From the IMG/VR virus record IMGVR_UViG_3300027994_000010, positions 1 through 39,411 of that record: 39,411 nucleotides of DNA; one strand, 5' to 3'. The translations under genes and the position numbers were made by a program. Under the pieces are notes generated by a model, which saw nothing but the letters and a program-made list of their open reading frames with translations, made no database searches and had not been told where the DNA came from. Of the stretch, positions 11,314 to 31,002 are shown piece by piece (the stretch's first letter is position 1; each line of letters begins with the position of its first letter). The stretch is from a virus (taxonomy: Duplodnaviria > Caudoviricetes).

Positions 11314-11387
11314 AATAAAAAGTAAACCCCCAATGTCACGACAACAAAGGAGGCTATATTAAGTTAGTGTCGTGAACAACAAATATA
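11314..11387 (-). promoter_or_regulatory. Promoter plus kissing-loop/pseudoknot leader, copy 1
   Basis: TATATTTG; loop TCACGACA (11375-11368) complementary to TGTCGTGA in the loop of AGCCTCCTTTG/CATTGGGGGTT; U-tract. Confidence 0.6.
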
Positions 11388-11392
11388 ATAAT

Positions 11393-11620
11393 TTAAATCG
11401 ATTTATTCATATCTTTTATGCAATCCATTACAGTCCAAATGCTCACGCCCATTATTTCTGCAGTCTGCTGGTATTTGTCCATTTTGCTTTTGCAGGTCAA
11501 ACCGTTGAAGTAAATGTATATTTGGAACGATCGGAGTACCGTCATGGGAATATGCCCCGTCTTCTTCAAGACAGTTATAACATTCTTGTTTTCCTCTATG
11601 AACTCGCCTACTGTTGCCAT
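11393..11620 (-). CDS. Small HTH DNA-binding protein
   Basis: QQTAEIMGVSIWTV helix-turn-helix-like C-terminus. Confidence 0.55.
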   Translation of the reverse strand: MATVGEFIEENKNVITVLKKTGHIPMTVLRSFQIYIYFNGLTCKSKMDKYQQTAEIMGVSIWTVMDCIKDMNKSI

Positions 11621-11892
11621 TTGCTACATTTTTTAATATCCTGTCTTGTCTTGTATGATAGTTCGCATCCGCATTTTCCGCATGCCATTTCCGATAGTTC
11701 GGGAACGCGTGTTTCTTCTATCCTTAAAAATGGTATCGGTTCTTTCCTGAAATAACGGCATCCTCCGCAAATTGTTGCTCGCTGCTTTGCCAACTGTTCA
11801 AACTCATCGGTTGGGTTTTCAAAGTTACGCTTTCCCTCGAAATAAGGCTCTGTGCCGTCGGCTATTAATGTCTTTATCTTAGAACTTAGCAT
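11608..11892 (-). CDS. Zinc-binding hypothetical protein (CxxC...CxxCxC...C..W)
   Basis: Cys pattern; ATG 11892 overlaps the TMP end (track start 11925 less likely). Confidence 0.6.
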   Translation of the reverse strand: MLSSKIKTLIADGTEPYFEGKRNFENPTDEFEQLAKQRATICGGCRYFRKEPIPFLRIEETRVPELSEMACGKCGCELSYKTRQDIKKCSKWQQ

Positions 11893-14800
11893 CTGCCATA
11901 ATTTGACGGTTATCCGATAAGTCAACTATTCCTTTTGCTGCGCCCTCTGCAGTTCCTAGTGCCGCACCAGTCCGTACCGCGTTGGCTATTGCCTCTGCCA
12001 TCTGGGAATTGTCGGCACGTTGTGAGATATTGTTCTGTAAAATCTGTGATGTATTGCCATCTATACCGACACCGCCGCCTGCCTGATTAATCTGGCTAAG
12101 CAATTGCGGGAACATCTGGGTAGCGCGTGCGGTTATGATGCTTTCCCCTGCCGAAACGTTTGCATCAAGGCTGTCGGAAGTTCCGCTACCGATTCCTGCA
12201 AGTCTGATAACACCGCTTGCATACTTCGGACGTGGCGCACCGCCCTCAACAGTTGCAGGTTTAACCGCAAGTATCTTCTTGACGTTTGCAAGACCTGCGG
12301 CAACAGCTCCAGCCGCAGCGACTACACCAAGCGCTATACCTACGGGACCCGGTATTGCTTCTGTCATTCCAGTAAACGCCGCCTGTGCGCCTCTGTAAGT
12401 TTCTACTGTTGTTTGAGCAACACCAGCAGCTTTCCCAGCGGCTGACTCCTTGCCTAAGATACTTGCTATTGTTCCAAAGGTAGTTTGTGCTAATTCAAGT
12501 TTATTATCTGTTACCGTGCGCTCAATTAGTTTCTTTTTCTTAGCCTCGTTTTCTTCGAACTTAATCATATCTGCTCCATTAGCTACGGCAATTGCTTTTC
12601 TTTGGTCGTACTCTCGTTGGTATTGCTCCATTTGCAATTGAAGACTGTACTCAAAAGCCTCTGCGTTTAACTCTGATTGTATTGCAACATCAATAGCTTC
12701 TTTTTCTTTCTTTGCATCCTTTCGTTCCTGTTCTGCGGCTTCATTTGCCACGCGTTGGTTTTCATCAATCTGTGCAATGGCTAGGTTGTATTCCTCGATT
12801 CCTATCAAACCAGCGGCGAATCGTTGTGTCTGCAAGTTTGATTCTTCCTCAGCAAGTCGATTGATACGATCCAAATCCTGACGATACAACTCCTCATTAT
12901 AGAATTGGTTCTCCTCAATGCGTCTTTGGTTATGTAAACGGAATAGCTCCAATTCAATCTCACCGTTGGCAATGACGGCTTCGGTCTGTCTTGAAAGGAA
13001 CTCATTTGTAATCTCAATCTTTTCCAATTCAAACTCACGAAGTGTCAGTTTCTTTGCATCGTACTCAGCCTGTGCGATTGCGATTTCCTGCTTCATCACT
13101 TCCTCGCTGAACTTCAATTGCTCCTCAAGTGATTTCTTTTTATCGCCTTGTGATGCGATATAAATATCAAGCTCGGTCTGCATCGCCTTGATTGCAGCCT
13201 CCTGTTGTTTCTTGACCAATGCAATCTGTTCATCTCTAGCTTTCTTCGCTGCGTCCTGACGTTCCTTTTCCAATCCGGATAACACTCGAGAATACTCCAA
13301 ACGTTTCTCCAAACCTTTATCCTCCGCGTCGTCAATCTTTACAAGTAAATCTATCTCTTCCTGCTTGTCTGCATTGGTCAGGTTCTGTATGCCTTTTATC
13401 TGCTGCTGTACTTTAAGTCTTTGCAGCTCAAGTTCCAGTATCTTTGCCTCTGCCTGACCGTTTGCCTCAGCGATTGCGATGTTTTCCTTAGCTGCGGCTG
13501 CACGTTCACGGAAGCTTTTTGAAGTGTCCTTAATGATAAGGTTGTTTTTATCCAATGCATCACCAACTGCAACCTGTGCCGCGTTGAAAGCAAGCTGAGA
13601 GGCTTCCATTTGCTTGGTAATCCGGTCAACTTCCGCCCCTAGTTTGGCCTGTTCGACCAAGAATTTGTTGGCCTCTGCCGCGCCAGCCTGTACCTTGTCG
13701 ATTACATTCTCAACACCTGACGCTGCCTGAGCTGCACCGTTCAATACTTTCTTGAAGTCCAAATCCATTATACCTTCAAGTATTACGCCGAACGCCTTGA
13801 ATCTGTTAATAAGGTTATTCTTTACGAAGTCACCCAAATCGGATAACGCCTTCTTTGGATTCTCGAATGTTTCAATTAGTGTACGCCCAAGATTACTTAA
13901 CAATCCCAATAATCCTTGGAATATTGCCTGCAATGGTCGGGTAATGGCGGTAAGTTTTCCGATACCGTCCTGAGCTGTTGTCAAATAAGCTATAAATGAA
14001 CCTAATACAACTACAATTGCACCTATTCCTGTACTTATCAACGCTACTTTAAATAATTTTAAAGCGGTAGATGAAGCGTTTGTTGCTATAACCCCAGCCT
14101 CAGTTGCTGCTGTCTGGGCATTCTGGGCGGCGGTAGCGGTTGTTGTGGCTGTGGCTGTAGCTATCTCTAGTTCCGCCTGAGTTGCCAATCCTTGATTCAT
14201 TTTAAACCCTATGGCTATTCTTGCCTCTTCCGCAACTTTTGCCTGTTCGGTTGTTTGCGTGGCTATTTTAGTTAATGAATTAAAATCCTCCTGTGCTTTT
14301 CTAGCCTCGGACAATCCAGAGTAAAAATCCTTATATGCATTTTTGACTTCTGAAATGCTTTCATTTACAGATTTAAAGCCTATCGCCGCACGCTGAAAGG
14401 GTGCCGGTAGATTATCCAATACCGAACCGAATAGTTTAGATTCGGTTATTGCCTTTTTAATTGACTCGGTGTAGTTTCCTATATTTAATTTTTGCTTTGC
14501 GGACTCGCTTGAATTGGCTTTTATATAGTCAGTATTCTTATCAATCTGCGCATTAACTAGCTTTAATAGTTCGGCTTCCTCTTTTATGGATGGATTCAAT
14601 TGATTAGAAATCCTGTTCAGTTCAATATTTGCTGCTTTTGCTTGGTTCTTATTGTTTATCTCCCTTCCCAATGCTGCATTCCCTGCCTCAATCAAAGTAG
14701 TCTGCTTTGCTTGGCTGGTCATGTAAGCGTTAAGTTCCTTATTGGTTGCAGTCAACTCAGTACGTACACGAGCCATTGAATTTGCCGTATTCTGCTGGTT

Positions 14801-15070
14801 CTTGTATAGCTGCTGTTCCGATTTGGACAAGTCCTGCAACAGTTTGTCGTTCTCCTTGTATTCGTCAGAAAGTTCCTGACCAGAAGCTGCCAAACGCAAC
14901 TGCTCCTTAACCAATGCCTCGGTTGCCTTCTTCACTTCCTTGCTGTGGTTCACGTATCCTTCCTGCTCCTTGCGAAGTGCAAACATAGTGTCCTGCAATG
15001 AACTAAGGCTAGCCTGCAGCTTGTCAACATCAAACTCGAATGTCGCTATATTTATTACCTCTTCTGCCAT
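11879..15070 (-). CDS. Tail tape measure protein
   Basis: 1063 aa, helical/coiled-coil; NIGNY, ALISTGIGAIVVVLG, and C-terminal YASG..G.GSGTSDS..ANVSAGE motifs. Confidence 0.85.
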   Translation of the reverse strand: MAEEVINIATFEFDVDKLQASLSSLQDTMFALRKEQEGYVNHSKEVKKATEALVKEQLRLAASGQELSDEYKENDKLLQDLSKSEQQLYKNQQNTANSMARVRTELTATNKELNAYMTSQAKQTTLIEAGNAALGREINNKNQAKAANIELNRISNQLNPSIKEEAELLKLVNAQIDKNTDYIKANSSESAKQKLNIGNYTESIKKAITESKLFGSVLDNLPAPFQRAAIGFKSVNESISEVKNAYKDFYSGLSEARKAQEDFNSLTKIATQTTEQAKVAEEARIAIGFKMNQGLATQAELEIATATATTTATAAQNAQTAATEAGVIATNASSTALKLFKVALISTGIGAIVVVLGSFIAYLTTAQDGIGKLTAITRPLQAIFQGLLGLLSNLGRTLIETFENPKKALSDLGDFVKNNLINRFKAFGVILEGIMDLDFKKVLNGAAQAASGVENVIDKVQAGAAEANKFLVEQAKLGAEVDRITKQMEASQLAFNAAQVAVGDALDKNNLIIKDTSKSFRERAAAAKENIAIAEANGQAEAKILELELQRLKVQQQIKGIQNLTNADKQEEIDLLVKIDDAEDKGLEKRLEYSRVLSGLEKERQDAAKKARDEQIALVKKQQEAAIKAMQTELDIYIASQGDKKKSLEEQLKFSEEVMKQEIAIAQAEYDAKKLTLREFELEKIEITNEFLSRQTEAVIANGEIELELFRLHNQRRIEENQFYNEELYRQDLDRINRLAEEESNLQTQRFAAGLIGIEEYNLAIAQIDENQRVANEAAEQERKDAKKEKEAIDVAIQSELNAEAFEYSLQLQMEQYQREYDQRKAIAVANGADMIKFEENEAKKKKLIERTVTDNKLELAQTTFGTIASILGKESAAGKAAGVAQTTVETYRGAQAAFTGMTEAIPGPVGIALGVVAAAGAVAAGLANVKKILAVKPATVEGGAPRPKYASGVIRLAGIGSGTSDSLDANVSAGESIITARATQMFPQLLSQINQAGGGVGIDGNTSQILQNNISQRADNSQMAEAIANAVRTGAALGTAEGAAKGIVDLSDNRQIMADAKF

Positions 15071-15072
15071 GC

Positions 15073-17361
15073 CTATTCTAAATTAGCGGTTAGTGTTTTT
15101 ACCGTGCCCGATCCTTGGTCTGCCGTAGTGAATATTACATCAGGTCCATAATAAATATTCTGCCTTGTCTCGGTTCCGTTGGTGGTTTGTATATCGAAAC
15201 TATTCAATACGGGCTCGGTTTCATAATTCTCGAAAGGAATAACCGCGTAGAACCTTACATATACATCATTGGCAAGTATAGATGATATTTCGCACTCCAC
15301 GCCGTTTATGATTACAGTTGTTCCTTCTGGGATTATGTCATTGTAGCCTGCGACTATCGGAATCCTGAACCTTACCGCATATCCGCTTACCGCATCAACC
15401 TGAATGGCTATGTCTCCCAGAGGAACCTCAGGTATCTTGCCAATCCTCACAAACTCACCTGATGCCAATTGTCCTGACTGGTAGGTTAATTTATTGAGCA
15501 TATAATACTGCGCCTCCTGACTGAAATAAACTGGCTTTGTCAGATCCGCTTGATAGAAATCAAGCAATCCCATTGCCAAATCAATGTCATGTACCTTGAA
15601 ATAATTGATAACGTCCATATACCTTGCATACCTTGCGGGCACAATCTGGTTATAGGTTGTTCCTGTGGTATCCGCATACGGAACCTGCGTTACCGTATCG
15701 CTTCCTGATACAGCCTCAGACATAAGCAGCCATTCGGAAACCTCTGACATCCTGTATTTCATGAAGTAGAAACGCTGGTTAAGCCCCTTATATTCAATGC
15801 CGATATTTCCGTCGCCGTCCTCCTTTGTTTCACGCTCCCAAATCTTGAATTTGTACGTATTGAAGGATTCAACCCCGTCAGAATCGTTAAATGTGGTGCG
15901 TAGCTGCTCAGGCGCAAAGGTTATGGATTCTATCAGTTTCTTTTCGGAAGGCGCATTGGCATCAGAAACAGTCAGGAATCCATTAAGGGACTTATCATCA
16001 GGGTCGTTATACTTATGTGAAAATATATTCTTCTGCGCAAAGCCGCTGTCATATTTCTCACCGTTCCTTTCAACATACATTTCGCTCCAATCCTGTGCAT
16101 CTGAAAAATCAAGTCTCTGCTCTAGCGTCTTGAACGTCATGCTCTTGTTTACCACGTCCAGTATCGGTGTGGTGCTTGTGAACCATAAACATTCCTTGAA
16201 AAAGTCACTTACCTTGAAGTCCTTGAATGCATCGGCAAGGATAATATCTCCCTGATTGGTCTTGTAAATCTTGAATTCGGCTGAATTGTGGTGTATTTCC
16301 CTTATAACTCTTCCGTCCCTGAAATACAGTGCAAGTATCCTTATATCTATTATATCTCCCTGATTGCAAAATATGCTTACCGAGCCTGTTGCTGGATTTA
16401 ACGGGTCAGAATCAAACGCCAGCGCGGGGTTTCCGTTCCTTAATATTTCAATCCTCATTGATTTTGCAACCGGACTGACGTAAGCCCCGAATGAGGTCCT
16501 TATAAAATACTGTCCATAAGTCTCAATCGATAAATCGAACCTGTATGCATAGTCGGCAGGTATTACATATTTCCAGTTTGATACAAGGCTGCCCTGATCC
16601 ACATCGGACGAATCCCAGAAATATTGCGACGAAGGCGATACGAATCCTCCTGCATCAGGTGTTGGATTGTAAAGCGTGTAATTCGCCTTTGTGAGCGTTG
16701 CTATAAGCTCAGATGTCACGTTGTCCGCTGGTGGCTTTGGGTATGTGATGTATAAATCGTCGAGTTCTTCGGTGTTTGTCCTGTCCGATGTAAACCCGAA
16801 TGTTTCTATCACAAGGTCAAGCAGTTTACCCATATTGAAGCACGGCACCAGATAATCAATATTAATTGCCGTATCACCCAATACCGTCCCGAAGTTCTTG
16901 CCGTTGTAATCGGCTATGATGTATTTATAATATTCGTTGTCGAATGATGCTATTACCGTGTCTATTGTCTTCTCATGGTCAAATTGTGTCAGGTTAACAT
17001 CCGTGCCCATAGTCTTGTTCTCAATCGACTTGAAAAAATCAATCATACCGTTGATGATGCTAACCTTGTATTCGGATGTTGTCTCCCTTACCCTTAGCCA
17101 TCCTGATTTTACAACAGGCAGTCCATCATCCTTTAAATCAGAAGGGATTTTGGAATAAGGAACCCTTGACGTATCTCCAGTTATTCCGAGCTGCGAAAGA
17201 ATCTGTGTATTGCCTGGTGTCTTTGGAATGGTGAATGAGTTGGTGTATGAATTGCTCACCGCCGCTATATCAAATATATCGGCAATCTGTCGCGTGTATT
17301 TAATGTCGTTGCCTTTGTCTATAAGTTCCAGTGATTCGCCGTTTGCGGTTAACTCTACCAT
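15073..17361 (-). CDS. Tail tip/baseplate-hub-like minor tail protein
   Basis: YTRQIADIFDI...SYTNSFTIPKTP.N N-terminus typical of Bacteroidota siphophage tail proteins; adjacent to TMP. Confidence 0.6.
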   Translation of the reverse strand: MVELTANGESLELIDKGNDIKYTRQIADIFDIAAVSNSYTNSFTIPKTPGNTQILSQLGITGDTSRVPYSKIPSDLKDDGLPVVKSGWLRVRETTSEYKVSIINGMIDFFKSIENKTMGTDVNLTQFDHEKTIDTVIASFDNEYYKYIIADYNGKNFGTVLGDTAINIDYLVPCFNMGKLLDLVIETFGFTSDRTNTEELDDLYITYPKPPADNVTSELIATLTKANYTLYNPTPDAGGFVSPSSQYFWDSSDVDQGSLVSNWKYVIPADYAYRFDLSIETYGQYFIRTSFGAYVSPVAKSMRIEILRNGNPALAFDSDPLNPATGSVSIFCNQGDIIDIRILALYFRDGRVIREIHHNSAEFKIYKTNQGDIILADAFKDFKVSDFFKECLWFTSTTPILDVVNKSMTFKTLEQRLDFSDAQDWSEMYVERNGEKYDSGFAQKNIFSHKYNDPDDKSLNGFLTVSDANAPSEKKLIESITFAPEQLRTTFNDSDGVESFNTYKFKIWERETKEDGDGNIGIEYKGLNQRFYFMKYRMSEVSEWLLMSEAVSGSDTVTQVPYADTTGTTYNQIVPARYARYMDVINYFKVHDIDLAMGLLDFYQADLTKPVYFSQEAQYYMLNKLTYQSGQLASGEFVRIGKIPEVPLGDIAIQVDAVSGYAVRFRIPIVAGYNDIIPEGTTVIINGVECEISSILANDVYVRFYAVIPFENYETEPVLNSFDIQTTNGTETRQNIYYGPDVIFTTADQGSGTVKTLTANLE

Positions 17362-18581: not shown

Positions 18582-18583
18582 TG

Positions 18584-19051
18584 TTATGCGGTTATTAATG
18601 TTTGTCTGGTTATGCGCAATATCTCTGACCTCACTTGGCCTGCCATATCATTCTTTATTTCATTGTAAACGTACTGTGTTACCTCTGGGCTTTGCAGTAC
18701 CTCCAATAGATCCGTTCCGCTTGGGTAATAGTTAGTGCCCTCCTTTTCAATCTTGTTGGCTACAGCGAATGCCGCGCTTACCGCCTGCTGTCCAGATAAT
18801 CCGAACTTATGACCTACCCATGCAACGAGTGGGGTTATTGGCGGTCTTTTGCCTGGCGAGCGACCGTTGACCAAGTAGTAAGTATAATCCATCCCCCATA
18901 TCTCGCCACGCGAACCGTTTACCCTAGCCTCCAAGGACGCCAACCACTTACCCGAAGCGTTCATGCCCAATGAAATAAATTTGGGCTTTAGGAATTTTTC
19001 AATGACACCCTGCATGGTTTGTTGGATTATTTCGGGGTTGGGTTGTATCAT
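18584..19051 (-). CDS. Putative neck/tail-completion protein
   Basis: NASGKWLASL...YLVNGRSPGKRPP...AFAVANKIEKEGT pattern of phage virion morphogenesis proteins. Confidence 0.55.
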   Translation of the reverse strand: MIQPNPEIIQQTMQGVIEKFLKPKFISLGMNASGKWLASLEARVNGSRGEIWGMDYTYYLVNGRSPGKRPPITPLVAWVGHKFGLSGQQAVSAAFAVANKIEKEGTNYYPSGTDLLEVLQSPEVTQYVYNEIKNDMAGQVRSEILRITRQTLITA

Positions 19052-19230
19052 TTTAAATCTTCTATTTTATAGTCGATTAGTTTATTGTCTATAATTACTT
19101 CTGTAATTTTAAAACCATCACTTCTGGACTCAATGAGATATATGGGCTTTGATTCAGAAAGTAAATTAATTAGTCTTTTATATTCTTCGCTTTCTTCATT
19201 ATCTGCATTAAATGTTATGTTGTGTGACAT
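19048..19230 (-). CDS. AT-rich small hypothetical protein (moron)
   Basis: 60 aa, fills the gap, ATGA overlap, visibly lower GC than flanks. Confidence 0.55.
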   Translation of the reverse strand: MSHNITFNADNEESEEYKRLINLLSESKPIYLIESRSDGFKITEVIIDNKLIDYKIEDLK

Positions 19231-19234
19231 CTTT

Positions 19235-19741: not shown

Positions 19742-19743
19742 TC

Positions 19744-21997: not shown

Positions 21998-22002
21998 AAC
22001 CA

Positions 22003-22032
22003 CAAAAGTAATAAAAATTATTTAATGTGCAA
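22003..22032 (-). promoter_or_regulatory. Promoter for terS/structural operon
   Basis: TTG, 19 nt, TACTTTTG, ending 5 nt before ATG 21997. Confidence 0.6.
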
Positions 22033-22038
22033 CAATCA

Positions 22039-22410
22039 CTATACAGAAAGTTTCTTAATAACTATGTGGTCAAAATCTTTAGTCTGTTGAATGTAAATCT
22101 TTAATTTCTGTTTTGATTCGTCCGAAGCCCAAATTTCTGAAATAAACGCCACCTCACAAACCATTCCTTTCCGTTGTTCACTCCACGGTTGACTTCTACC
22201 GTCACCGCCTAGAATAAATTCATAAGTGCTATTACGGGTTTTTGATCGTATGAATTTGCCAGCTCCGCTTTCAAAATCCTTTATCAAATCCGATGCGCTT
22301 GCTTCTTGTTTGGTCTTGAGCATTATTATTTCAGTTTTCAGAGACTCTAAATTCAATCTGTCAGATTCAAACCGTTGTTCTTTTTGTTTAATTGTTTCTT
22401 GTAAAGTCAT
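22039..22410 (-). CDS. Hypothetical protein
   Basis: 123-aa ORF, co-oriented, A-rich upstream region. Confidence 0.6.
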   Translation of the reverse strand: MTLQETIKQKEQRFESDRLNLESLKTEIIMLKTKQEASASDLIKDFESGAGKFIRSKTRNSTYEFILGGDGRSQPWSEQRKGMVCEVAFISEIWASDESKQKLKIYIQQTKDFDHIVIKKLSV

Positions 22411-22510
22411 TTTAATCGTTTTTAAGGCATTATTTTTTATTTTTTGTAACTACTATCGTTTTGGTTGTGTTTGTTTGTTAGATGGTAAAATAAATACATC
22501 TCGTAGGGTT

Positions 22511-23158
22511 TTAGAATAGTTTGGTCTGACTAATATGATTCTTTATTCGTTTTATTGCGGCGTTGTAGTAGTCGGTATCGAGTTCGCAGGCGGTTAGATT
22601 AACGCCGTAATCGTGGCAAGAAATAGCGATTGAACCGCTTCCAAGGTGGGTGTCTAAAACTTTTGAATCTTGCTTGGTGTACCTTTCCAAAATCCACCTA
22701 TAAAGTTGGGTTGGTTTTTGAGTTGGGTGTATCTTTCCAAAATCATCTTTATTCAATTCTTGAACTCGTTTTAGATTCATGATCCTGACGTTGTCAAACT
22801 GACTACCCCAAGCCATCTCTGCATCGGCAAAACACCTATCTGGATTTTTTTTATCCCAAATCAGCCAATGCTTTGAGTTTGCAAAAGGAATCGATTCAAT
22901 AAAATGGTTCGCCCCCCAAATAATTTGATTTTTGCTAACTCTCCTCAACTCTATAAAATAACTTTCCTCTGGTGCTGAGTTATCCCAACCATATTCTTTA
23001 TCTTGAAATTGTTTCCTTGATTTTCTATTTGTCCCTTGCTCTGCATTAATTCCATACGGCGGATCTACAATAGCCAAATCAAAATAATTATCAGGGTAAC
23101 GGCTCATAAGAGACATATTGCACTCGTTGGTAATGGTAATTTTATCTGTTATGTTCAT
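22511..23158 (-). CDS. Orphan N6-adenine/N4-cytosine DNA methyltransferase (beta class)
   Basis: IVDPPY, HPTQKP, LDTHLGSGS in beta-class order. Confidence 0.9.
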   Translation of the reverse strand: MNITDKITITNECNMSLMSRYPDNYFDLAIVDPPYGINAEQGTNRKSRKQFQDKEYGWDNSAPEESYFIELRRVSKNQIIWGANHFIESIPFANSKHWLIWDKKNPDRCFADAEMAWGSQFDNVRIMNLKRVQELNKDDFGKIHPTQKPTQLYRWILERYTKQDSKVLDTHLGSGSIAISCHDYGVNLTACELDTDYYNAAIKRIKNHISQTKLF

Positions 23159-23517
23159 AAGTATTCAGGATTATGTAGTTGTTTAGTTGTTTCTGGTGTC
23201 ATTGGTCTGACAAAAATTTGATTTTTAAAAGCCCTTATACATTCCTGCCGCATTCCGAAACTTATCCTATCGCCATACAGTCTAACCTCGTCAACAATAT
23301 TCCTGTCTAAAACTTCCAATCCGTTTTTAATACCCCGTTCGCGTTCTTCTGGAATGGTATCGTCTAACGCGTACAGGTCAGATAAGTATGGAACGAACGG
23401 AACAACGTTAGGCTCGTTTAAATTAATTTCCCTGCATATCGCAATGACCTTGTCGATATTGTTTTTTACGTCGCCTCCAATGGGATGCGCTATGTATGCT
23501 ATTGTCATTTTTTTCAT
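23155..23517 (-). CDS. DUF4406/nucleoside-deoxyribosyltransferase-like protein
   Basis: AYIAHP.GG...DEVRLYGDRISFGMRQE motif. Confidence 0.65.
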   Translation of the reverse strand: MKKMTIAYIAHPIGGDVKNNIDKVIAICREINLNEPNVVPFVPYLSDLYALDDTIPEERERGIKNGLEVLDRNIVDEVRLYGDRISFGMRQECIRAFKNQIFVRPMTPETTKQLHNPEYL

Positions 23518-23520
23518 ATT

Positions 23521-23733
23521 CTATTTTTTAATTGGTTCAACACTAAACGGCATATACAACGCCCTAGCCTCATTATACGGAACATCCTCGAAACTTCCGT
23601 CGTGCAGGTAACGGATGCGGACTGAGTTGGTGGATATGCCTGATACGTAGCAGTCCTTTCCGTTTAGGGTGTGTATTACTGCGTTCGTTGGGACTTCGTA
23701 AATACCGTGCATTCGGGTTCCAGCTTTAGACAT
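23521..23733 (-). CDS. Hypothetical protein (start corrected)
   Basis: ATG 23733 overlaps the upstream stop; the track start is deep within the upstream gene. Confidence 0.45.
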   Translation of the reverse strand: MSKAGTRMHGIYEVPTNAVIHTLNGKDCYVSGISTNSVRIRYLHDGSFEDVPYNEARALYMPFSVEPIKK

Positions 23734-24028
23734 TGTGCGGCATTTTACGTCCGCAACCAATGCAGAATTTATTGTAATAGCAATTCTTTCTTTCGAAATC
23801 TGAACAGTCAACGAATTCTGGGTGTTGCTCTCGGTTCTCGGTGAATTTAATGACGCCAATGGATTCTAGGTGAAGGACGTACATTGCCAAGTATTCCTCA
23901 AGTTCCCCTACAGTTAAAATAACATTTTCACTTTTTATAAAAATAAATGCATTGGATTGCAAATCTTTGTTTGCTTCTGTTTCAACGAACTCCCTCGCCC
24001 GTTGCTTGTCTTTTTCTTGGATTTTCAT
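23726..24028 (-). CDS. Hypothetical protein with C-terminal Cys cluster
   Basis: ATGA coupling; C...C...CIGCG. Confidence 0.55.
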   Translation of the reverse strand: MKIQEKDKQRAREFVETEANKDLQSNAFIFIKSENVILTVGELEEYLAMYVLHLESIGVIKFTENREQHPEFVDCSDFERKNCYYNKFCIGCGRKMPHNV

Positions 24029-24624
24029 AAGTGGTAATTTTTAAGTTGTGATTCAGTTAACTGCATAATCGATAAATCTTTAATGAATTGCACCGTCTTA
24101 GATGCGTGGCTGATTATTATGAACTCAACACCTTTAGCCGAAGTGTGTATAGTTCTTTGCTCTGCTATAAATTTACGGTAATCCTCAATGAACCCGTCGT
24201 AATCTTTAGCTATCCAATATAACCCCCCTGCCGATTCTATTGCCTGTTGGTATTTCTTCTGGTCTGCCGATTGCCTGTCCTTTCCAATTTTGACCTCAAT
24301 CTTTACCGACTTTCCGAATATGGTTGCTGATATGTCCGCACTTCCATTAGTTCCGGTGCCAGGGATATATTTAGTGCTGCCGACCGTCCTAGCCCTGCCG
24401 ATTACGTCAGTGGTTGCCTTTCGGTTGTCAACCTGCCTGCCTGTTGTCGATATACGCTCGGATTGGTGTCCGCAGTAATTTAGGAAGTCTTTGATGCACT
24501 TGGTCAGTCCGTTGGCGGTTGTGTCAGTGTACTTTGGCTCAGGTAAATAAGGAAAAGTTGGATAACGTGTCCTGAGTTCGTCAAGGTGAAGTTTATTCAA
24601 TGTGGCTTTATTCAGTTTAAGCAT
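24025..24624 (-). CDS. VRR-NUC-like PD-(D/E)XK nuclease / Holliday junction resolvase
   Basis: GSADI...KIEVK.GKDRQS..QKKYQ...AGGLY motif. Confidence 0.75.
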   Translation of the reverse strand: MLKLNKATLNKLHLDELRTRYPTFPYLPEPKYTDTTANGLTKCIKDFLNYCGHQSERISTTGRQVDNRKATTDVIGRARTVGSTKYIPGTGTNGSADISATIFGKSVKIEVKIGKDRQSADQKKYQQAIESAGGLYWIAKDYDGFIEDYRKFIAEQRTIHTSAKGVEFIIISHASKTVQFIKDLSIMQLTESQLKNYHL

Positions 24625-24749
24625 ATCGTGAATAATTTAGATCTTTTAATAAATAGTTCCTCCAATTCGAAATACAACTGCATCGTTATGTGTCCGTCGA
24701 TGAATTGTTGGGTGTAATAGTCGTGTTTTCGTTGGAGTAGGTTGTACAT
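24612..24749 (-). CDS. Small hypothetical protein (45 aa; not in track)
   Basis: MYNLLQRKHDYYTQQFIDGHIT... open frame between the origin and the nuclease gene. Confidence 0.45.
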   Translation of the reverse strand: MYNLLQRKHDYYTQQFIDGHITMQLYFELEELFIKRSKLFTICLN

Positions 24750-24936
24750 TTGACACTTTTTATACACTAATTTGACACTTTTTATACACTTTTTGCCTCG
24801 TTAGCCCTTATTAATACTATATATTTTACATATTATACATATAATATAATATAATATATAAAAATAACCCTTTTTTAATTCATTTAAAGAGCTGGTGTCA
24901 AAAGTGTCAAATTATACACTTTTTTATACACTTTTG
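24748..24936. repeat. Putative replication origin: iteron-like repeats flanking an AT-rich core
   Basis: ATTTGACACTTTTTATACACT at 24748 and 24770; inverted GTGTCAAA at 24895 and 24904; TATACACTTTT at about 24913 and 24925; near-pure A/T at 24810-24860. Confidence 0.7.
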
Positions 24937-24970
24937 AATACAAAGTATTGATTTTGTTGTATTTGCGTTT

Positions 24971-26278
24971 TTATTTTTTGTCAAATTCAGACTTCCAATT
25001 ATACAGTGTTGCCCTAGTAACGTCCAATAGGTCGGCTATCTTCTTATAGTTCAACTTGGTTCCGCTATCGTACATCACTTTGAATTTATCCTTTGGCGTA
25101 GATTCTTTGTTTGTGGCGATAATTGATTGTATGGATTTGGTTTCTTTTGCCTCAACTTTTACTTTCTTGGCTTGAGAAATAAAATATTTGCTCAACTCCC
25201 AAGCGTGCAAAACAGTTTGTCTGGTTATTGGTATTGAGGTGTCGATTTTGTCAGGATTATGAAGCAGGTGTATTATTAAGCAGAAACGCGGTATATATGA
25301 TTTTTGCTTTGGAAGAACCGACTTCATATACTCATTTTCTTCATCGGAGTTCTGCATTATCGTAATTTCGTTATATATTTTTTGCCATTCTGCATCAGCT
25401 TCTTTATCCATCTTGAATACGTTCGGCACTATCTCAAAATCATCGCTGTAACTTATCGCATATTTTACGTTACGGGCAAATGATTTTACGAAATCATCAT
25501 ACCAAATAATACCATCGTGATCCATTTCGTTGACATTGTAAAGGTCAATTGATATTTCAGGGCAGCAAAGCAATATACGGTCAAGAAATCCATTTGATTT
25601 GTTTTCCTCTGTACTGAAGCTTTCTAAGATTGCGGGTTGTACACCCCCTAATATCGGAACAAAAGGTTTAGGCAAAAATGAATCCCCGCTTTTTCGGTTC
25701 ATGGAAACAGCCTTGCCGCTCCATGTGGAAAGCCAAAACGGCAAGTCCGAACCGTTGCTGTAACGCGACATGTTCTTTACCCATCCGTCAAGCTCCTCGC
25801 GAAACATTCCAATTGCGTTTTTATTGTTGCTGTGTAGTTGAACCAACGCCTCAATAGTAATGTCGTTTACGATGAATTGTTCAGGTCTTGGTTTTACCAT
25901 CGTTCCTGATTCATCGTTTTTATATGCATCCATTTCTTTACGGTAACGTGAAATCATGTCCGAGTTAATTATTTCAAACGGACGTATCGCCATCGCTATA
26001 CTTGGTGTTTTTCCTACGCCTGCAGAACCTACGCATGCAACCCAAATACTGCAGAACTCCCGCCACCCATTTTTAACCTGTATGGCGCATGAATTACCGA
26101 CCACCGAAGACACGCCCCAAAGAAGCGAAGCGGACATATAATCTATATTACTGTCAAGTGTTTCGTTACATTGCAGTATATAAGTTTGTATCGGTTTTGG
26201 AAATATCTCAATCGGGAACTCTGATTTTTTATTCGATTCCTCTTTTGCAAGTTCAGACATTTGTTGTTTAATACTCAT
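24971..26278 (-). CDS. DUF3987/YfjI-like P-loop ATPase (replicative helicase candidate) with C-terminal HTH
   Basis: FPIEIFP, GSAGVGKT, DITIEAL, REELDG, GGVQP, NGFLDR; C-terminal IADLLDVTRATLYNWK. Confidence 0.8.
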   Translation of the reverse strand: MSIKQQMSELAKEESNKKSEFPIEIFPKPIQTYILQCNETLDSNIDYMSASLLWGVSSVVGNSCAIQVKNGWREFCSIWVACVGSAGVGKTPSIAMAIRPFEIINSDMISRYRKEMDAYKNDESGTMVKPRPEQFIVNDITIEALVQLHSNNKNAIGMFREELDGWVKNMSRYSNGSDLPFWLSTWSGKAVSMNRKSGDSFLPKPFVPILGGVQPAILESFSTEENKSNGFLDRILLCCPEISIDLYNVNEMDHDGIIWYDDFVKSFARNVKYAISYSDDFEIVPNVFKMDKEADAEWQKIYNEITIMQNSDEENEYMKSVLPKQKSYIPRFCLIIHLLHNPDKIDTSIPITRQTVLHAWELSKYFISQAKKVKVEAKETKSIQSIIATNKESTPKDKFKVMYDSGTKLNYKKIADLLDVTRATLYNWKSEFDKK

Positions 26279-27126
26279 AACCTTAAATAATTATCAGCAA
26301 TGTCTTCCCCTAACTCACAATCTGAGTTTTCTAAAAAGTCATTTATTGTTAGATTAAAACCCTGTTCAGTCAATTTTATTGCGGTTGCGTTCCATTCGTG
26401 ATAACACCCTTTGTCGGGAAAACCTATAATTTTACGAAGTTTCAATGGAGCAAGGTATTCGAGTTTGAAACCACTTTTAGACCCGGTAGCCAACCAAAGG
26501 AAATCAGGCTCAAAAACCGACATAAGCACTGCAGTCTTTTCGCTTTCGACCAATGCAATCGTCTTGGTTCGTATTTCTTTCGTAAGGTGCAATCCGAAAA
26601 TACATTGCTTTAAATTAAATTCTGGTATTTTCATTGCAGAATGAATCCAATTTATATGGGCTTTACCATTTGCATCTTTTACCCTTTTTCCTGTTGTCGG
26701 ATTATAAGCCATTATTTTACCTGAGCGCACTCGCTCAAGTTGGTCAATCTGCCAAAATATTGTGTTGCCGTTTCCGTAATCCGAAATAAAGTAATCGGAA
26801 TATGCTTTTGCCAATTGTTCTGCAGTAAATATCGTTGATAGGAATTTAGAAAAATTATCCTGTTTTTTGTTTAGGTAAAAACTCTCCAGTACTTCCAATT
26901 GGATGTAAGATGTTTGCTTTTTATTTGCCTCTGCTTTATCAACTACAACAACCTCGTTAGATTCAGGTTTTCTGAAATAACCGCAGTTTTGTTCACGGTC
27001 GCAGCGTCCAAATTCTTCCGAGTAATATTCTTTTGTTTCTACATCAATGAATTTTACGAAAGTCTTTTTACTGCAGTTCGGGCAGTTGAATTTTTTGCTT
27101 GATTTGTCGAGTTGAAACTTAAGCAT
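26275..27126 (-). CDS. Zn-finger/TOPRIM primase-like protein (DUF6371-like)
   Basis: CPNC...GRCDREQNCGY, FWQID...GKIM.Y, LVESEKTA, WLATG, FPD, DIAD. Confidence 0.75.
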   Translation of the reverse strand: MLKFQLDKSSKKFNCPNCSKKTFVKFIDVETKEYYSEEFGRCDREQNCGYFRKPESNEVVVVDKAEANKKQTSYIQLEVLESFYLNKKQDNFSKFLSTIFTAEQLAKAYSDYFISDYGNGNTIFWQIDQLERVRSGKIMAYNPTTGKRVKDANGKAHINWIHSAMKIPEFNLKQCIFGLHLTKEIRTKTIALVESEKTAVLMSVFEPDFLWLATGSKSGFKLEYLAPLKLRKIIGFPDKGCYHEWNATAIKLTEQGFNLTINDFLENSDCELGEDIADNYLRL

Positions 27127-27407
27127 CAGAAAGGGAGTTTGTGTCCTACAACCGAAACAGAAACATCGTATTCATTATAAAAATCCCATGCGTGAACGAA
27201 AGCCCTGAATGTGTTACCGTTTCCGTCTTCTTCATATATCCTTACAGTAAGTGCGCCTTTATGGTCTTCAACTGAAAGTATGTTTAGTATTTCTAAATTA
27301 CAAAGTCTCAATACAGCCATATTAACTGTGTGAATAAGTCTTTCTTTTCTGCTAGGCTCTGATTGATTATAAATTAATTCAATCGGGTGTTTGATAAATA
27401 TTTCCAT
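27126..27407 (-). CDS. Hypothetical protein
   Basis: 93 aa, DHKG.L.V motif, TGATG coupling. Confidence 0.6.
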   Translation of the reverse strand: MEIFIKHPIELIYNQSEPSRKERLIHTVNMAVLRLCNLEILNILSVEDHKGALTVRIYEEDGNGNTFRAFVHAWDFYNEYDVSVSVVGHKLPF

Positions 27408-27522
27408 AAAAAAAAGGAAGCCTGTACGCGGCTCTCGACTTCCGAATACAGGCTTTTATTCCTTTAAGTTGTTACTTGTCGAGAGTGTAACGAAATTACA
27501 ATAAAAAATTTAATATACCAAA
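27408..27522 (-). promoter_or_regulatory. Promoter plus kissing-loop/pseudoknot leader, copy 2
   Basis: TTTG, 20 nt, TAATTTCG; loop CTCTCGAC (27485-27478) complementary to GTCGAGAG in the loop of AAGCCTGTA/TACAGGCTT; T8 tract. Confidence 0.65.
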
Positions 27523-27528
27523 CTTATT

Positions 27529-27693
27529 TCAACAAATCTCCACCACCCAAAACCCATTTTGCCAAAGCCACATATTAGCAACCATCAACCACCAATCCAA
27601 TTTATTCGAATTAAAAGCGTAGTCCGAAAATTCGCGCCCATTACAAAGTATGTAATAGATTTCTATGGTTTGGATTTTTGATTGGATGTCCAC
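27529..27693 (-). CDS. Small Trp-rich hypothetical protein (54 aa; not in track)
   Basis: GTG directly after the upstream stop; open frame ending at the promoter. Confidence 0.35.
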   Translation of the reverse strand: MDIQSKIQTIEIYYILCNGREFSDYAFNSNKLDWWLMVANMWLWQNGFWVVEIC

Positions 27694-28032
27694 TTAGTCA
27701 AATGGGTTGTAAAAGTTTGGTCGTATTGTTTCGGGCATGCAATGGTTACGATTTCCTGTTCCTCCAAGTCGTTCAATTACTTCGCTTCTTGCTGCAAGCG
27801 ACTGGCTGCGTTGGGTGTTGATGTGCTGAACGGGTTCTTCATTCGGGTCGGTTCGTAATGATTCTGCAATCGCGTAAACCTCGAAACGTTTGTAATGTAT
27901 AAACATACCGATTTGCTCACCGACTATTCCGCGTCTTTTTGCTCGTTTGGTTACGGCGTTATCAGACAACCCGCAAAGTATCGCTACGTCACGGGTTGAT
28001 ATGAATTGGTTGATTCCGAGTTTAAGAGTCAT
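27694..28032 (-). CDS. Putative HTH DNA-binding protein
   Basis: [23 protein letters not shown] excisionase/MerR-like HTH. Confidence 0.5.
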
Positions 28033-28523
28033 ATTTTTATTCCTTTTGATATTAAGTATTGCATGTGTTTTTCTTTGGTGTCTAACAAATCTCCTTCCTT
28101 TGATTTGAATAAACGCAAGTCTGAAACAAAAATTAAAAATTTATGTGATTTTCTGTGTTCTGAAATAGACAAAAGAAAAACATCTTTTAGAAAGTCATTA
28201 TTGTAGTTCCAATGGTGTAATTCAAAACCGTCAGGTATTTTAAAGTTCCTATTAAGGTTTTTAACTACAGATAAATTTTTCCAAGGCCTTTTTAAATCCC
28301 ATTCTTTTTGCCTTTCTTTATAGTTAAGTCTGGTATATTTTTCTCTTTGCCTTTCTCTTTCTTTTTCTAAACCTTCCGGTGTAGAGATAATTTTTAATCT
28401 GGTATTTTCAGAATCTTTTTTTGTGCAAACTTTACACTTATTCAAGTGACCGTCTGCCATTTGTTTGTGCGTATAGTATTCATAAAGTTCTTTTTCTTCA
28501 CCGCATTTAAAACATACCTTCAT
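28029..28523 (-). CDS. Putative HNH (homing) endonuclease
   Basis: CFKC...[11 protein letters not shown]-terminal Zn module; ELHHWNY...EHRKSH; AT-rich. Confidence 0.7.
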
Positions 28524-28585
28524 AGTTTTTATTTTTTTATAAATATATGTTTTTAAAACGGTAACTACAAATTTAATTTACCATT

Positions 28586-28945
28586 TTAAAAAGGTAAATC
28601 TGATTCCTCCGCGTTTCCAGAAGACGGCTCAAATGTCTGCGCTTGTTGTTGCACTGGTGCTTGAGCCGAACCCTGCTCTTTCTCAATCCTCCAACCCTGA
28701 ATCTGATTGAAATACTTCGCCTCGCCTTGTGGGTTAATCCACTCGCGTCCACGTAAATTGATACTTACCTTTACCGAATCCCCAGATTTGTAATTATTCA
28801 GCAAGTCGCACTTGTCCTGCGTAAACTCGATCATGATGTGCTGCGGATACTGCTCATCCGTGGTCACCACCAATTCTCTTTTCTTAAAGCTGGCGCTCAC
28901 TTGTTGCTCAGCATTGATTAATTTGATTACTCCTGATACTTCCAT
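28586..28945 (-). CDS. DUF3127-family ssDNA-binding protein
   Basis: FKKRELVVTTDEQYPQ, INLRGREW, YFN.IQGWRIE, acidic DLPF C-terminus. Confidence 0.85.
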   Translation of the reverse strand: MEVSGVIKLINAEQQVSASFKKRELVVTTDEQYPQHIMIEFTQDKCDLLNNYKSGDSVKVSINLRGREWINPQGEAKYFNQIQGWRIEKEQGSAQAPVQQQAQTFEPSSGNAEESDLPF

Positions 28946-28946
28946 T

Positions 28947-30020
28947 TTATAAATTATTTACTTGGTTAACAGCCCATTTTTTAAAGGCTTCGAATTTTTC
29001 TTTGATTTCTTTAGTAGCGTCGTTGTCTATATTGGTTTCGGGAATAGAGAATGAACCAACCCAAACTACCAACTGTTTTTTAATTGGTGCTTTGGCAAGT
29101 TTCTCGGCTTCTTTACGCTCTGCTTCCGCTTTTAGTTCCGATTCTTTTTTCGACTTTTCCTCTGCGTCCTGTTTTGCTTTTAGTTCGGCTTGCAACTTCT
29201 CTTGTTTTTCACGTTCTGCGGCAAGTTCCAATTCCTTTTTTTTCGCAATCCTATTGGCTTCGTCCTGTGCTTTTTTGCGTTCCTCTGCCAATAGTTTTTC
29301 AGCAGCTTCACGTTCGTATTTTATTACAGCTTCACGTTCGTCGGCTTCTTTTTTCAATTGTTCGTTTTCCAAACGTTGCGCCTCAATGCGTTCCAACTCT
29401 GCTTTACGTTCTGCTTCGACGCGTTCTGCTTCTATCTTATCAGATTCTATCTTAACCTCATAAGCGGCTTTTTTAGTAGCCAAAAACGATTCAAACACAT
29501 CAGCGTCCAAAGAAGCTAAATCGCTAGGTAGCACATCGACAAACGGGCGCAACAATTCTTCACGATCCAAACGTAACGCATGAAGTCGGGCATTTTCCAA
29601 ATTCTCGAAATACTTTTCAGCCTCCAGAAGTTTTGATTCCATTTGCTCGTTCTCCAAAACCTCTTTGTTTTTGATGGCATCAACGAAGCGACCTCCAGCC
29701 AAATAAAAAGCTTTGTTTGTCTTATGCCATTTCTCAATGCCTTGCGTCCGGTTCTTGACAATCTTTAAACGCAACTCTTTAAATGTTGGTAGATTTTCAG
29801 CCGTTACTGGCAATTCAACAACATCGATGTACGCATTCTTTAATGCTTCACGTTCGGCAAAGACGGTTGTTAGTCCGCTTACCATTTCCTGCGCTTTTAC
29901 GGGTTCAATTCCGAACAAATCAGGGGCGATTTCCCCTGATAGTTCAATTGGAATTAACTCTTGGTTCTCGTGCAAATCCCATTCGGTTTGCTGCTCTCTG
30001 TTTTCTCTTGAAATTCCCAT
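28947..30020 (-). CDS. Coiled-coil recombination-module protein
   Basis: E/K/A-rich helical; GGRFVD motif; lies between the AAA ATPase and SSB. Confidence 0.6.
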   Translation of the reverse strand: MGISRENREQQTEWDLHENQELIPIELSGEIAPDLFGIEPVKAQEMVSGLTTVFAEREALKNAYIDVVELPVTAENLPTFKELRLKIVKNRTQGIEKWHKTNKAFYLAGGRFVDAIKNKEVLENEQMESKLLEAEKYFENLENARLHALRLDREELLRPFVDVLPSDLASLDADVFESFLATKKAAYEVKIESDKIEAERVEAERKAELERIEAQRLENEQLKKEADEREAVIKYEREAAEKLLAEERKKAQDEANRIAKKKELELAAEREKQEKLQAELKAKQDAEEKSKKESELKAEAERKEAEKLAKAPIKKQLVVWVGSFSIPETNIDNDATKEIKEKFEAFKKWAVNQVNNL

Positions 30021-30028
30021 TATTTAAT

Positions 30029-30877
30029 TTATTTAGGTTGTTCTTCTGTTATTGGCTCCAATGCTTTCTTGCGCTTATCCTTAGCGGCAACGAATTTTTT
30101 GTCTGTCTGCAGGTTTTTATACTTGCTCCAGATAAATTTAAGGTCGTCCAATGTTGCTACGATTGTCATTTCATTGATTGCAACCTGCAATTCAGAATCC
30201 CCACTTTCGCACCAATTCTTTATTGTCTCGCCTGTTTCCTCTGTAATAAGGAACGGTTGTTTGCCTTCAAAAAGGTTTGTTCGGTCTTTACTTGGTATTG
30301 CCAAATGCGTTTCTCGGTCAATATTCAAAGAAACGGTAAGCTCGTATTCCCAGCCCTCACGTTGAACATCCTTCATTCCAACCTTGTGTACTTTCTTGCC
30401 TTCTCCCATTACGGTTTCCATTTTAGAGCGGGTACAAGTGATTACGTGTGCAGGATGGTGAAGTACTGCGGCAATGAACCTGTCATGTCTTGGCGTTGTT
30501 TTACTCCAGGCACTCCATGTATTGCCTCTGAAAGCCGATTGGGCTAATAGTTCGTTTTCTTCGAGTAGGCATGCCCATTCGTGTGAACTACTGTCAATTA
30601 TTACCGCCTCCATTCCTGCTGCGGTACATGCGGCCAATGCCTCAATATACTTTTCAGGTGTAAACGGCGGTTGCATATCAATAACATTGAACTCGCCTAA
30701 ATCAGAGTAGAGACTTGCAGATCCGTTCTCGGTATCAATGACCGCGATTTTTGACCATTCACCTACTAAACCTTTAGCCATTCTTAAGGCAGAGTATGTT
30801 TTACCTGCCCCGCTTGGTGCGGAAATGTTAAGCCTTAGTTTGACTTGTTTCCTTGTTGCTTTTTTTAATTGTAACAT
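30029..30877 (-). CDS. AAA_24 / Sak4-like recombination ATPase
   Basis: APSGAGKT, VIDTE, IIDS.SHEW, EYE motifs. Confidence 0.8.
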   Translation of the reverse strand: MLQLKKATRKQVKLRLNISAPSGAGKTYSALRMAKGLVGEWSKIAVIDTENGSASLYSDLGEFNVIDMQPPFTPEKYIEALAACTAAGMEAVIIDSSSHEWACLLEENELLAQSAFRGNTWSAWSKTTPRHDRFIAAVLHHPAHVITCTRSKMETVMGEGKKVHKVGMKDVQREGWEYELTVSLNIDRETHLAIPSKDRTNLFEGKQPFLITEETGETIKNWCESGDSELQVAINEMTIVATLDDLKFIWSKYKNLQTDKKFVAAKDKRKKALEPITEEQPK

Positions 30878-31002
30878 AATTATAAAAGTTAAAAGCCGCC
30901 AACGAATGCAGTAGAGCGTGCAAACATTAACGGACTTTTGAAATTTTTCTCACCGGCTCTACTCGGTATTTCAAAAATACAATTTTATTCCCTAACATAC
31001 AA
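30878..31002 (-). promoter_or_regulatory. Promoter plus kissing-loop/pseudoknot leader, copy 3
   Basis: TTG, 20 nt, TATTTTTG; hairpin ACCG-AGTAGAGC-CGGT; complementary GCTCTACT at the apex of a long G-U-rich stem; U-tract. Confidence 0.65.

Follow-up and report, generated by a model that had tools for sequence, protein, structure and literature searches.

Predicted leader RNAs that would pair an upstream word with the tip of a terminator-like hairpin precede three gene modules of an uncultured phage

Background

Pairing between the two loops of the guanidine-IV riboswitch prevents terminator assembly, with the linker becoming too short (PMC11611296; bioRxiv 2020.10.21.349134). Three leader RNAs of related design, E1, E2 and E3, were predicted on the minus strand of virus record IMGVR_UViG_3300027994_000010, which comes from an uncultured phage and was analysed whole (39,411 nucleotides (nt), or 39.4 kilobases (kb)); it is referred to herein as the window. 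The guanidine-IV (mepA/GGAM-1)/Gd4v RNAs, which the initial annotation of the window did not name, appear to be the closest structural relatives of these leaders (PMC11611296; bioRxiv 10.1101/2020.10.21.349134; PMC9788692). As in those RNAs, two hairpins are predicted to be joined by a loop-loop pseudoknot, and the 3' hairpin, a likely intrinsic terminator, lies ahead of a gene; as in guanidine-IV, the pairing is proposed to block completion of the terminator, and an A-U plus a G-C pair occupies the 5' end of the terminator loop.

Two further systems invite comparison. The CI RNA of phage P4, with its seqA and seqC segments, likewise belongs to the leader of a replication operon in a phage, in which segments are self-complementary and transcription ends prematurely (PMC4825925), and the C4 antisense RNA of phages P1 and P7 (RF01695) has also been described (PMC2864571). 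Unlike both, the leaders carry the complement on an intrinsic-type hairpin, have no Rfam match and belong to Bacteroidota rather than Proteobacteria. C4 of phage P1 is reportedly a processed, stable RNA with two flanking targets, acting in trans to bring about premature termination, whereas each leader has a single word pair. The rep leaders of I-complex plasmids, such as that of repZ in ColIb-P9, have also been described (PMC10724649). There, the loop of an upstream hairpin forms a cis pairing with a site further downstream, before the replication gene, and the loop letters vary between relatives, as they do among the leaders.

We show herein that the three elements of the window are real, far beyond chance, and present sequence comparisons that make them members of a real, apparently uncatalogued family of phage leaders. 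We propose how the pairing may act on transcription, and weigh this proposal against other explanations as the evidence is given.

Results

Three leaders with one layout

The three minus-strand regions share the layout promoter box, word, long hairpin with the exact complement of the word at its apex, U-tract and ATG (Table 1); the initial annotation had described this layout, and its boxes, words and complements were all found where it had placed them. An A-rich linker joins the word to the long hairpin, every word and every complement (together called the address below) occurs once in the window, and the predicted leader RNAs are 57-80 nt long. The set comprises three forms in one genome, namely a long one (E3), one with tandem promoters (E2), and a minimal one with the word at +1 (E1). 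The claim that the copies share no primary sequence held for the 5' regions, which were not significantly alike overall (p 0.11), but not for the addresses of E1 and E2, TCACGAC and TCTCGAC, which differ at only 1/7 positions.

Folding z-scores were -2.4, -3.4 and -2.4 for E1, E2 and E3, respectively. The minus strand folded more stably than the plus strand in E1 (-16.1 versus -10.7 kcal/mol) and E3 (-25.7 versus -16.7 kcal/mol) but not in E2 (-25.0 versus -25.9 kcal/mol), and the G-U-dependent strand asymmetry of E1 and E3 bears out the earlier remark that wobble pairs make these two copies specific to the minus strand. The 2x2 UU internal loop ascribed to all three was predicted in E1 and E3 (UU/UU), whereas E2 folds with a 1x1 or 1x2 loop.

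The intergenic DNA is AT-rich and the detector was tuned on the window, so the elements could in principle be inverted repeats that arose by chance next to ordinary terminators, or hairpins of single-stranded DNA. A detector that required a box, a word, a long hairpin tipped by the complement and an ATG matched exactly E1-E3 among 58 box sites of the window; it had been tuned twice until all three were recovered (earlier settings gave 2 and 1), so this count is somewhat flattered. The homologs and a test in which only the 5' part was shuffled are independent of the tuning, and in the latter a match of at least 8 base pairs (bp) arose in 3, 2 and 10 of 1000 trials for E1, E2 and E3. Sixty block-shuffled windows gave 3 matches in 4015 sites, with at most one per window, and shuffled leaders gave none in 300 for each element. 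When pairing was not required, 80 long hairpins had a perfect box before them and an ATG behind them, and 32 of these still showed a match of at least 7 bp upstream, where 2.5 were expected; up to four of the 32 (the window's own and that of locus L048) are not independent. These controls, the strand asymmetry of E1 and E3, the constant order of promoter, word, stem, U-tract and ATG, and above all the covariation described below, which largely refutes chance, make this explanation most improbable, to the point of being negligible.

Promoter and predicted start sites

A start-site map of Flavobacterium psychrophilum places TAnnTTTG at -12 to -5 (PMC9723704). With this geometry, the word would start at +1 in E1 and at +2 in E2, and the small hairpin (P1) of E3 would begin exactly at +1. 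The 5' arm of P1 would then lie upstream of +1 in E1 and E2, and the hairpin would be whole only in E3; that of E1 would exist only in read-through RNA, while RNA from the second E2 box (27526) would contain all of P1. A cis-regulatory leader behind a Bacteroidota sigma-A-type TAnnTT(T/C)G box is supported, whereas the small hairpin said to display each word fits E3 and falls partly outside the RNA from the named promoter in E1 and E2. In the family described below, P1 has at least 4 bp in 39/47 predicted promoter-born RNAs. Since the E1 box lacks a -33 element, it is conceivable that E1 transcription depends on an activator. A scan for E. coli-type promoters and short-loop terminators stayed at chance level and is unsuited here.

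A family of leaders in related phages

The family was collected from 277 loci, namely the surroundings of Sak4-like and DUF6371 relatives, the surroundings of the E1 address, and two cultured genomes. An ATG-anchored detector gave 62 distinct matches; 4 were judged false by eye, and 11 of the 13 with at least two box mismatches were dropped. The curated family holds 47 leaders (those of the window included) in 38 clusters and 33 address groups, with up to 3 leaders per locus. Cultured members are Flavobacterium and Cellulophaga phages, six in number: lillamy9-1, phi18:3 and 11b came from a scan with relaxed settings that took in five records or stretches, and morran9-1, mumin6-1 and phi10:1 were recovered by homology. 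The same scan found no element in Fpv5 (whole) or in a 20-kb stretch of Gundel_1.

A leader precedes the Sak4-like orthologue in 11 cases (10 of 68 viral loci plus E3), with 9 addresses among them; the remaining viral loci of the 68 lack one immediately before the gene. Because the same address occurs ahead of unrelated genes (CTGGAAC and CCGCCAAG), leaders are likely to move as cassettes. Among 30 downstream proteins scanned, 14 were without a Pfam family, and the others were mainly helicases, primases, nucleases (HNH, NUMOD4, GIY-YIG), an initiator-like domain, RNA ligase and methylases. The window adds to this picture in that E1 precedes a glycosylation module and not DNA metabolism. A search with the E1 address returned 37 stretches, only one of which (L048) had the full layout, ahead of an RNA ligase, and no orthologues of the E1 locus were found using the glycosyltransferase or the upstream open reading frame (ORF) of 75 amino acids (aa).

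No first gene shared by leader-bearing modules was found, and Atlas searches for a shared protein or first gene gave no usable family. In phi18:3, lillamy9-1, morran9-1 and phi10:1, the first gene is small, and the four are related to one another but not to the first genes of the window. In these four phages, the U-tract is followed by a conserved block, GGTAATCTT(A/T)AAACC, ahead of the start codon of the related 70-aa genes; the block is absent in mumin6-1.

None of 118 boxed starts in host chromosomes (1.2 Mb from four Bacteroidota genomes) carried it, versus 23/435 in viral loci (p 0.007; replication genes had guided the choice of viral loci). Stretches around Sak4-like matches in genomes gave 0/38 boxed starts with an element, and metagenome DUF6371 loci gave 0/92; one element was found in a 332-kb cellular contig (L187). 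A covariance model of five leaders, run without a positive control, had no match in 151 Bacteroidota genomes, an uninformative result. Rfam returned nothing on the elements at E values up to 5 in the window, nor in 10 related loci, whether Rfam 15 includes a guanidine-IV model being unchecked, which agrees with the initial impression that no named family is involved. Literature searches found no description of the element in the papers within reach, most subscription papers lying outside it, and the supplementary motif catalogues of large non-coding RNA screens could hold the motif. Such catalogues are reportedly found in the additional files of Weinberg 2010 and in later Weinberg and Fremin screens.

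Pairing is kept while letters change

Covariation, a check proposed with the initial annotation, was scored on three MAFFT alignments made from sequence alone and not fitted to structure, and it was found in each. In the subfamily of E2 (E2, phi18:3 and four contigs), the kissing helix was paired in 48/48 cells, and 5/8 pairs had changed on both sides. A second subfamily (five leaders with a GAA/AGUA internal loop) was paired in 96.4% of 140 cells with 18/28 pairs changed on both sides; its kiss was paired in 35/35 cells with 2/7 pairs so changed. An alignment of eight leaders including four cultured phages, one row of which is misaligned, was paired in 90.4% of cells overall and in 90.7% in the kiss, where 5/8 pairs had changed on both sides. 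In slid-alignment controls, pairing dropped to 29-47%.

Words are rich in G+C (57% versus 39%). Complement position 2 is U in 27/38 clusters (mean U share 24%), and an S-U start (S denotes G or C) occurs in the complement of 27/38 and in the word of 22/38 clusters, whereas shuffles gave means of 11.2 and 9.1 and none of 5000 was as high. By comparison, the pairing is under selection while the letters are nearly free, with only the S-U start kept on both strands, and the conserved feature is shape, not address. The commonest interruption of the stem is a 2x2 internal loop, mostly UU/UU (19 counted), which is a family trait but not universal. In L076, L078, L079, L080 and L119, the terminator stem has a GAA/AGUA internal loop instead of UU/UU, which we take to be sarcin-ricin-like. 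L080 also holds a sub-threshold match to the Pistol ribozyme at 7822-7886 on the plus strand (29.1 bits against a gathering score of 34.5; E 0.2).

A small molecule, or a phage or host protein specific for the shape, could stabilise the kiss and co-activate all three modules; a Rop-like protein is an example of such a reader. The architecture equals that of guanidine-IV/Gd4v, the kept A-U and S-S pairs match A29-U72 and C30-G71 of guanidine-IV in the end at which they lie, and reading of the shape would account for the free addresses. On the other hand, there is no invariant set of nucleotides for a pocket, the downstream genes are unrelated to a metabolite, and no window protein tracks element-bearing loci beyond the neighbouring replication genes (41 proteins versus 153 viral loci). 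We therefore regard a riboswitch or protein-read element as hardly probable. Predicted folds and covariation do place pairing between the P1 loop and the terminator loop, as in guanidine-IV. However, guanidine-IV has nucleotides at least 97% conserved around its pseudoknot and precedes exporter, MATE, GNAT, transaminase and acetyltransferase genes, whereas the best-kept position of the leaders is the single U above, their address groups number 33, and they precede replication, recombination, nuclease and glycosylation genes. Unlike in guanidine-IV, moreover, the linker is usually long enough for the full stem, and some leaders are without P1 in the promoter-born RNA. By analogy, then, the leaders may work like guanidine-IV RNAs without being members of that class, from which pocket, gene context and linker rule set them apart.

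The long hairpin as a likely terminator

The base of the long hairpin is rich in G+C and is followed immediately by a U-tract, as in intrinsic terminators. In 43/47 leaders, the 8 nt that come right after the stem include at least 5 U, versus 7% at -17 to -10 of 1756 ordinary starts, and the U count fell from 5.5 to 4.0 in the following 8 nt. In lillamy9-1, morran9-1, phi10:1 and phi18:3, the annotated start lies ~50 nt behind the stem. Because the U-tract stands at the stem base in 43/47 leaders and the start codon can be up to ~50 nt away, the long hairpin is likely to be an intrinsic terminator; those of E1 and E3, with interrupted tracts, are likely leaky. Of the two functions first suggested, attenuator or translation switch, the former is thereby favoured.

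The pseudoknot of I-complex plasmid rep leaders acts on translation, and a kiss could similarly prevent the hairpin, or the A:U pairs that extend it, from covering the A/U-rich initiation region. The stem base lies a median 17 nt from the ATG (8 nt in E2), and the A-rich linker can pair with the U-tract. It is nevertheless very unlikely, given the four distant annotated starts, a U-tract fixed at the stem base and not at the ATG, and the lack of antisense promoter enrichment. An antisense -7 box was found inside 5/47 leaders (2.2-3.4 expected) and downstream of 8/47 (versus 109/456), other sigma factors being outside this test. The leaders thus differ from the RNAI system of I-complex plasmids in having no enrichment of counter-transcript promoters, a terminator-type U-tract and a start codon up to ~50 nt away. 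In I-complex plasmids, the pairing partner adjoins the rep start and is opened when a leader peptide is translated; in the leaders, it is a hairpin tip that lies 8-50 nt plus one stem arm from the start, and 30/47 leaders hold an ATG.

A proposed ligand-free antiterminator

In stepwise folding of E1-E3, a model that leaves pseudoknots out, the word:complement helix was the best from the appearance of the complement until the lower 3' arm was made, after which the terminator was. The stem exceeds 11 steps, i.e., one turn, in 41/47 leaders. We propose that the 5' word, by pairing with the terminator tip, works as a ligand-free antiterminator that sets transcription into the module, and judge the chances of this proposal to be about even. 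A leader RNA is likely to be made from the adjacent promoter. In the nascent RNA, a kiss of 7-8 bp could form once the complement exits the polymerase, before the lower 3' arm exists, and internal loops in the stem would delay zipping. The kiss would close a ring of word, linker and 5' arm, and a stem of more than one turn could then zip only by winding the linker round it, the 3' end being held by the polymerase. Formation of the kiss first would lead to read-through and formation of the stem first to a short terminated RNA, with kinetics setting the ratio. In the weakest step of the scheme, anything occupying a loop could tip the outcome toward termination, the most plausible occupant being accumulated short RNA of the same address. 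After release, the RNA could fold its stem first and kiss later, without the winding cost. The main reasons for different addresses in different copies would be that every pair is functional and that leaders travel as cassettes.

Several points weigh against the antiterminator. Other letters break up the U-tracts of E1 and E3, and when 22000-39411 was searched with a simple terminator scan, nothing but a sub-hairpin of E2 was listed. A rough estimate that treats helices as straight makes the linker too short for kiss plus full stem in only 9/47 leaders and in none of E1-E3, contrary to a plain copy of guanidine-IV, and the winding argument would be weak for E1, whose stem spans ~0.8 turn. A translational effect is possible in E2, whose tail is 8 nt from the ATG and can be paired over by an A-tract. 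Finally, a ligand-independent kiss of -11 to -12 kcal/mol might win nearly always, and as OFF input the tests described here and below gave no ligand pocket, antisense promoter enrichment, second target copy or co-occurring reader protein. The released short RNA is the simplest candidate for such an input.

Alternatively, the kiss may form after the stem, without competing with termination, and serve to compact and protect either the mRNA 5' end or a stable small RNA. By the same estimate, the linker allows kiss and full stem together in 38/47 leaders, and in E1, E2 and L048, the word lies at +1/+2, so its pairing would hide the 5' end. Against this, stepwise folding lets the kiss precede the complete stem, the small hairpin of many members is preceded by 4-10 nt or more, and no conserved sequence remains to serve a function of the released RNA. 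Such a late kiss thus seems rather improbable.

Addresses and possible control in trans

If terminated RNA accumulated, it could pair with nascent leaders of the same address and block their internal kiss, a self-silencing, immunity or copy-control circuit similar to P4 CI and plasmid incompatibility RNAs that would be compatible with the antiterminator as its input. The leaders lie mostly ahead of replication, recombination and homing-nuclease genes, the same address never recurs in 11 same-locus pairs, and S-U loop starts resemble U-turn recognition loops. Between lillamy9-1 and mumin6-1, which share hosts, the address differs at 4/16 sites versus 7/99 elsewhere, with full compensation (p 0.046, uncorrected, in one of 10 pairs), and cross-pairing reaches -4.4/-4.9 versus -11.4/-11.7 for cognate pairs. 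However, five other pairs showed 0/14-16 address differences even though 25-37 of ~96 other sites differed, and hence no faster evolution of the address overall. The released RNA could kiss itself in 38/47 leaders (an estimate of reach), and antisense boxes, as noted, are not enriched. Nor was a second target copy found: word and complement each recurred (at least 6 nt) downstream of 4/47 leaders, versus 1.6 and 1.4 expected, and upstream 1 was seen versus 3.4. Control in trans coded by the address is therefore doubtful, though worth keeping in mind; small RNAs that are released and carry an address, as first suggested, are possible.

The absence of a second target copy and of an RF01695 match also leaves the suggested C4/CI-like anatomy unsupported. 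The same is true of the idea that addresses are selected not to cross-react. None of 11 same-locus pairs shared at least 5 address letters, versus 2.9% between loci, which is too few to show avoidance, and the single mismatch between E1 and E2 argues against control in trans as well. Their cross-duplexes (-6.5/-7.4 kcal/mol) retain about half the cognate energy (-12.1/-14.5 kcal/mol). Neutral drift with compensation, together with cassette exchange, explains the address data equally well.

Two further ideas were rejected. Mimicry of tRNA anticodons or T-box-like sensing fails as most P1 loops are without a Y-U start, and a ring resembling packaging RNA has no link to packaging genes.

Genome and modules behind the leaders

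Nearly all genes of the window lie on the minus strand, and they include those for a portal, a Clp-type head protease, a tape measure, terminases, a DNA methylase, a DUF3987 helicase, DUF6371, a DUF3127 single-strand binding protein and a Sak4-like ATPase. Since relatives of the single-strand binding protein are almost confined to phages of Flavobacterium, Polaribacter, Cellulophaga, Nonlabens and Tenacibaculum (115 of 118 records), the host is likely of the Flavobacteriaceae type. The three modules behind the elements agree in gene content with their earlier naming as glycosylation, replication and recombination (Table 1). No integrase was seen among the window genes; a 67-aa piece similar to IrrE/M78 peptidases and a Cro/C1-like helix-turn-helix protein at the contig end (36794-36997 and 39138-39404, minus strand) are possible remnants or the edge of a lysogeny module. 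No RNA run was listed as holding the elements; E2 and E3 are covered by two DNA runs of one sample, neither listing a variant in either element; this is not independent support.

Several other features were noted. The 75-aa ORF at 11393-11620 (minus strand) ends just upstream of the E1 box; its Atlas look-alikes are unnamed phage proteins, and the nearest named clusters are Mor-type activators (score 0.79-0.80, a lead only). The glycosylation cluster at 8301-11111 (minus strand) sits between tail and head genes, and its GT2 enzyme is ~37% identical over its length to mycobacteriophage glycosyltransferases. Between this module and the head protease, a 112-aa ORF with a signal-peptide-like start (8026-8364, plus strand) runs opposite to all other genes, with no match in Pfam or PHROG. 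Behind the DUF3987 helicase, a very A+T-rich intergenic stretch (24768-24970) with repeated AAAAGTGTATAAAAA(A)GTG units and TGACAC/GTGTCA inverted copies resembles a replication origin with iterons. Contigs of other phages from the same sample join the places 28945 and 29074 (128-base skip, 41 letters on the short side), probably as relatives with another gene order. A weak Rfam match to the Fluoride riboswitch in coding sequence at 2547-2601 (minus strand; 20.8 bits against a gathering score of 34, E 0.16) is likely due to chance.

Table 1. Positions of the leader parts, of the modules behind them and of a block conserved in related phages
Feature	Position	Strand	Remarks
E1 -7 box TATATTTG	11387-11380	-	no TTG 19-21 nt upstream; predicted +1 = 11375
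E1 word TCACGACA	11375-11368	-	at predicted RNA 5' end; flanking weak hairpin only in read-through RNA
E1 long hairpin	11325..11355	-	UU/UU loop; complement TGTCGTGA at 11343-11336
E1 U-rich tail	11314..11326	-	precedes ATG at 11313
Module behind E1	8301..11313	-	69-aa membrane protein, GT2 glycosyltransferase, 59-aa ORF, FkbM methyltransferase, second glycosyltransferase
E2 second perfect -7 box TAAGTTTG	27519..27526	-	TTG 21 nt upstream; 28 nt ahead of E2 box
E2 -7 box TAATTTCG	27498-27491	-	TTG 20 nt upstream; predicted +1 = 27486
E2 small hairpin GTTAC/GTAAC	27471..27491	-	word CTCTCGAC at 27485-27478; homologous to P1 of phi18:3, L166, L183, L024, L032
E2 long hairpin	27416..27462 (core 27455-27418)	-	complement GTCGAGAG at 27439-27432
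E2 U8 tract	27408..27415	-	abuts ATG at 27407
Module behind E2 (replication)	24971..27407	-	93-aa ORF, Zn-ribbon/DUF6371 protein, DUF3987 helicase
E3 -7 box TATTTTTG	30979-30972	-	TTG 20 nt upstream; predicted +1 = 30967
E3 small hairpin ACCG/CGGT	30952..30967	-	begins at predicted +1; loop = word AGTAGAGC at 30963-30956
E3 long hairpin	30894..30935	-	UU/UU loop; complement GCTCTACT at 30917-30910
E3 U-rich tail	30878..30894	-	precedes ATG at 30877
Module behind E3 (recombination)	28029..30877	-	AAA_24/Sak4-like ATPase, 357-aa ORF, DUF3127 single-strand DNA-binding protein, endonuclease VII-like protein
Conserved GGTAATCTT block (related loci)	L277 14220-14245; L373; L375; L370 18240-18270

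Conclusion

In its fullest form, which we consider unlikely but not far-fetched, the leader would be a portable feedback cassette that needs no protein, in which the 5' word keeps the terminator from acting until short RNA with the same 7-8-letter address has built up and restores it. If this is true, every gene module would have its own timer, related phages would have private channels that do not interfere, and the cassette would be the same-strand equivalent of plasmid incompatibility. The near-identical leaders of lillamy9-1, morran9-1 and mumin6-1, which bear three natural addresses, offer a ready-made swap system, and the natural library of address pairs would be a starting stock for building programmable attenuators for use in Flavobacterium and Bacteroides. 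If the antiterminator is right, the family would represent a widespread, uncatalogued phage transcription switch with the architecture of guanidine-IV but without a ligand pocket. It would show how a kissing loop alone gates a terminator, and would explain how replication and nuclease genes are dosed in phages of Bacteroidota.

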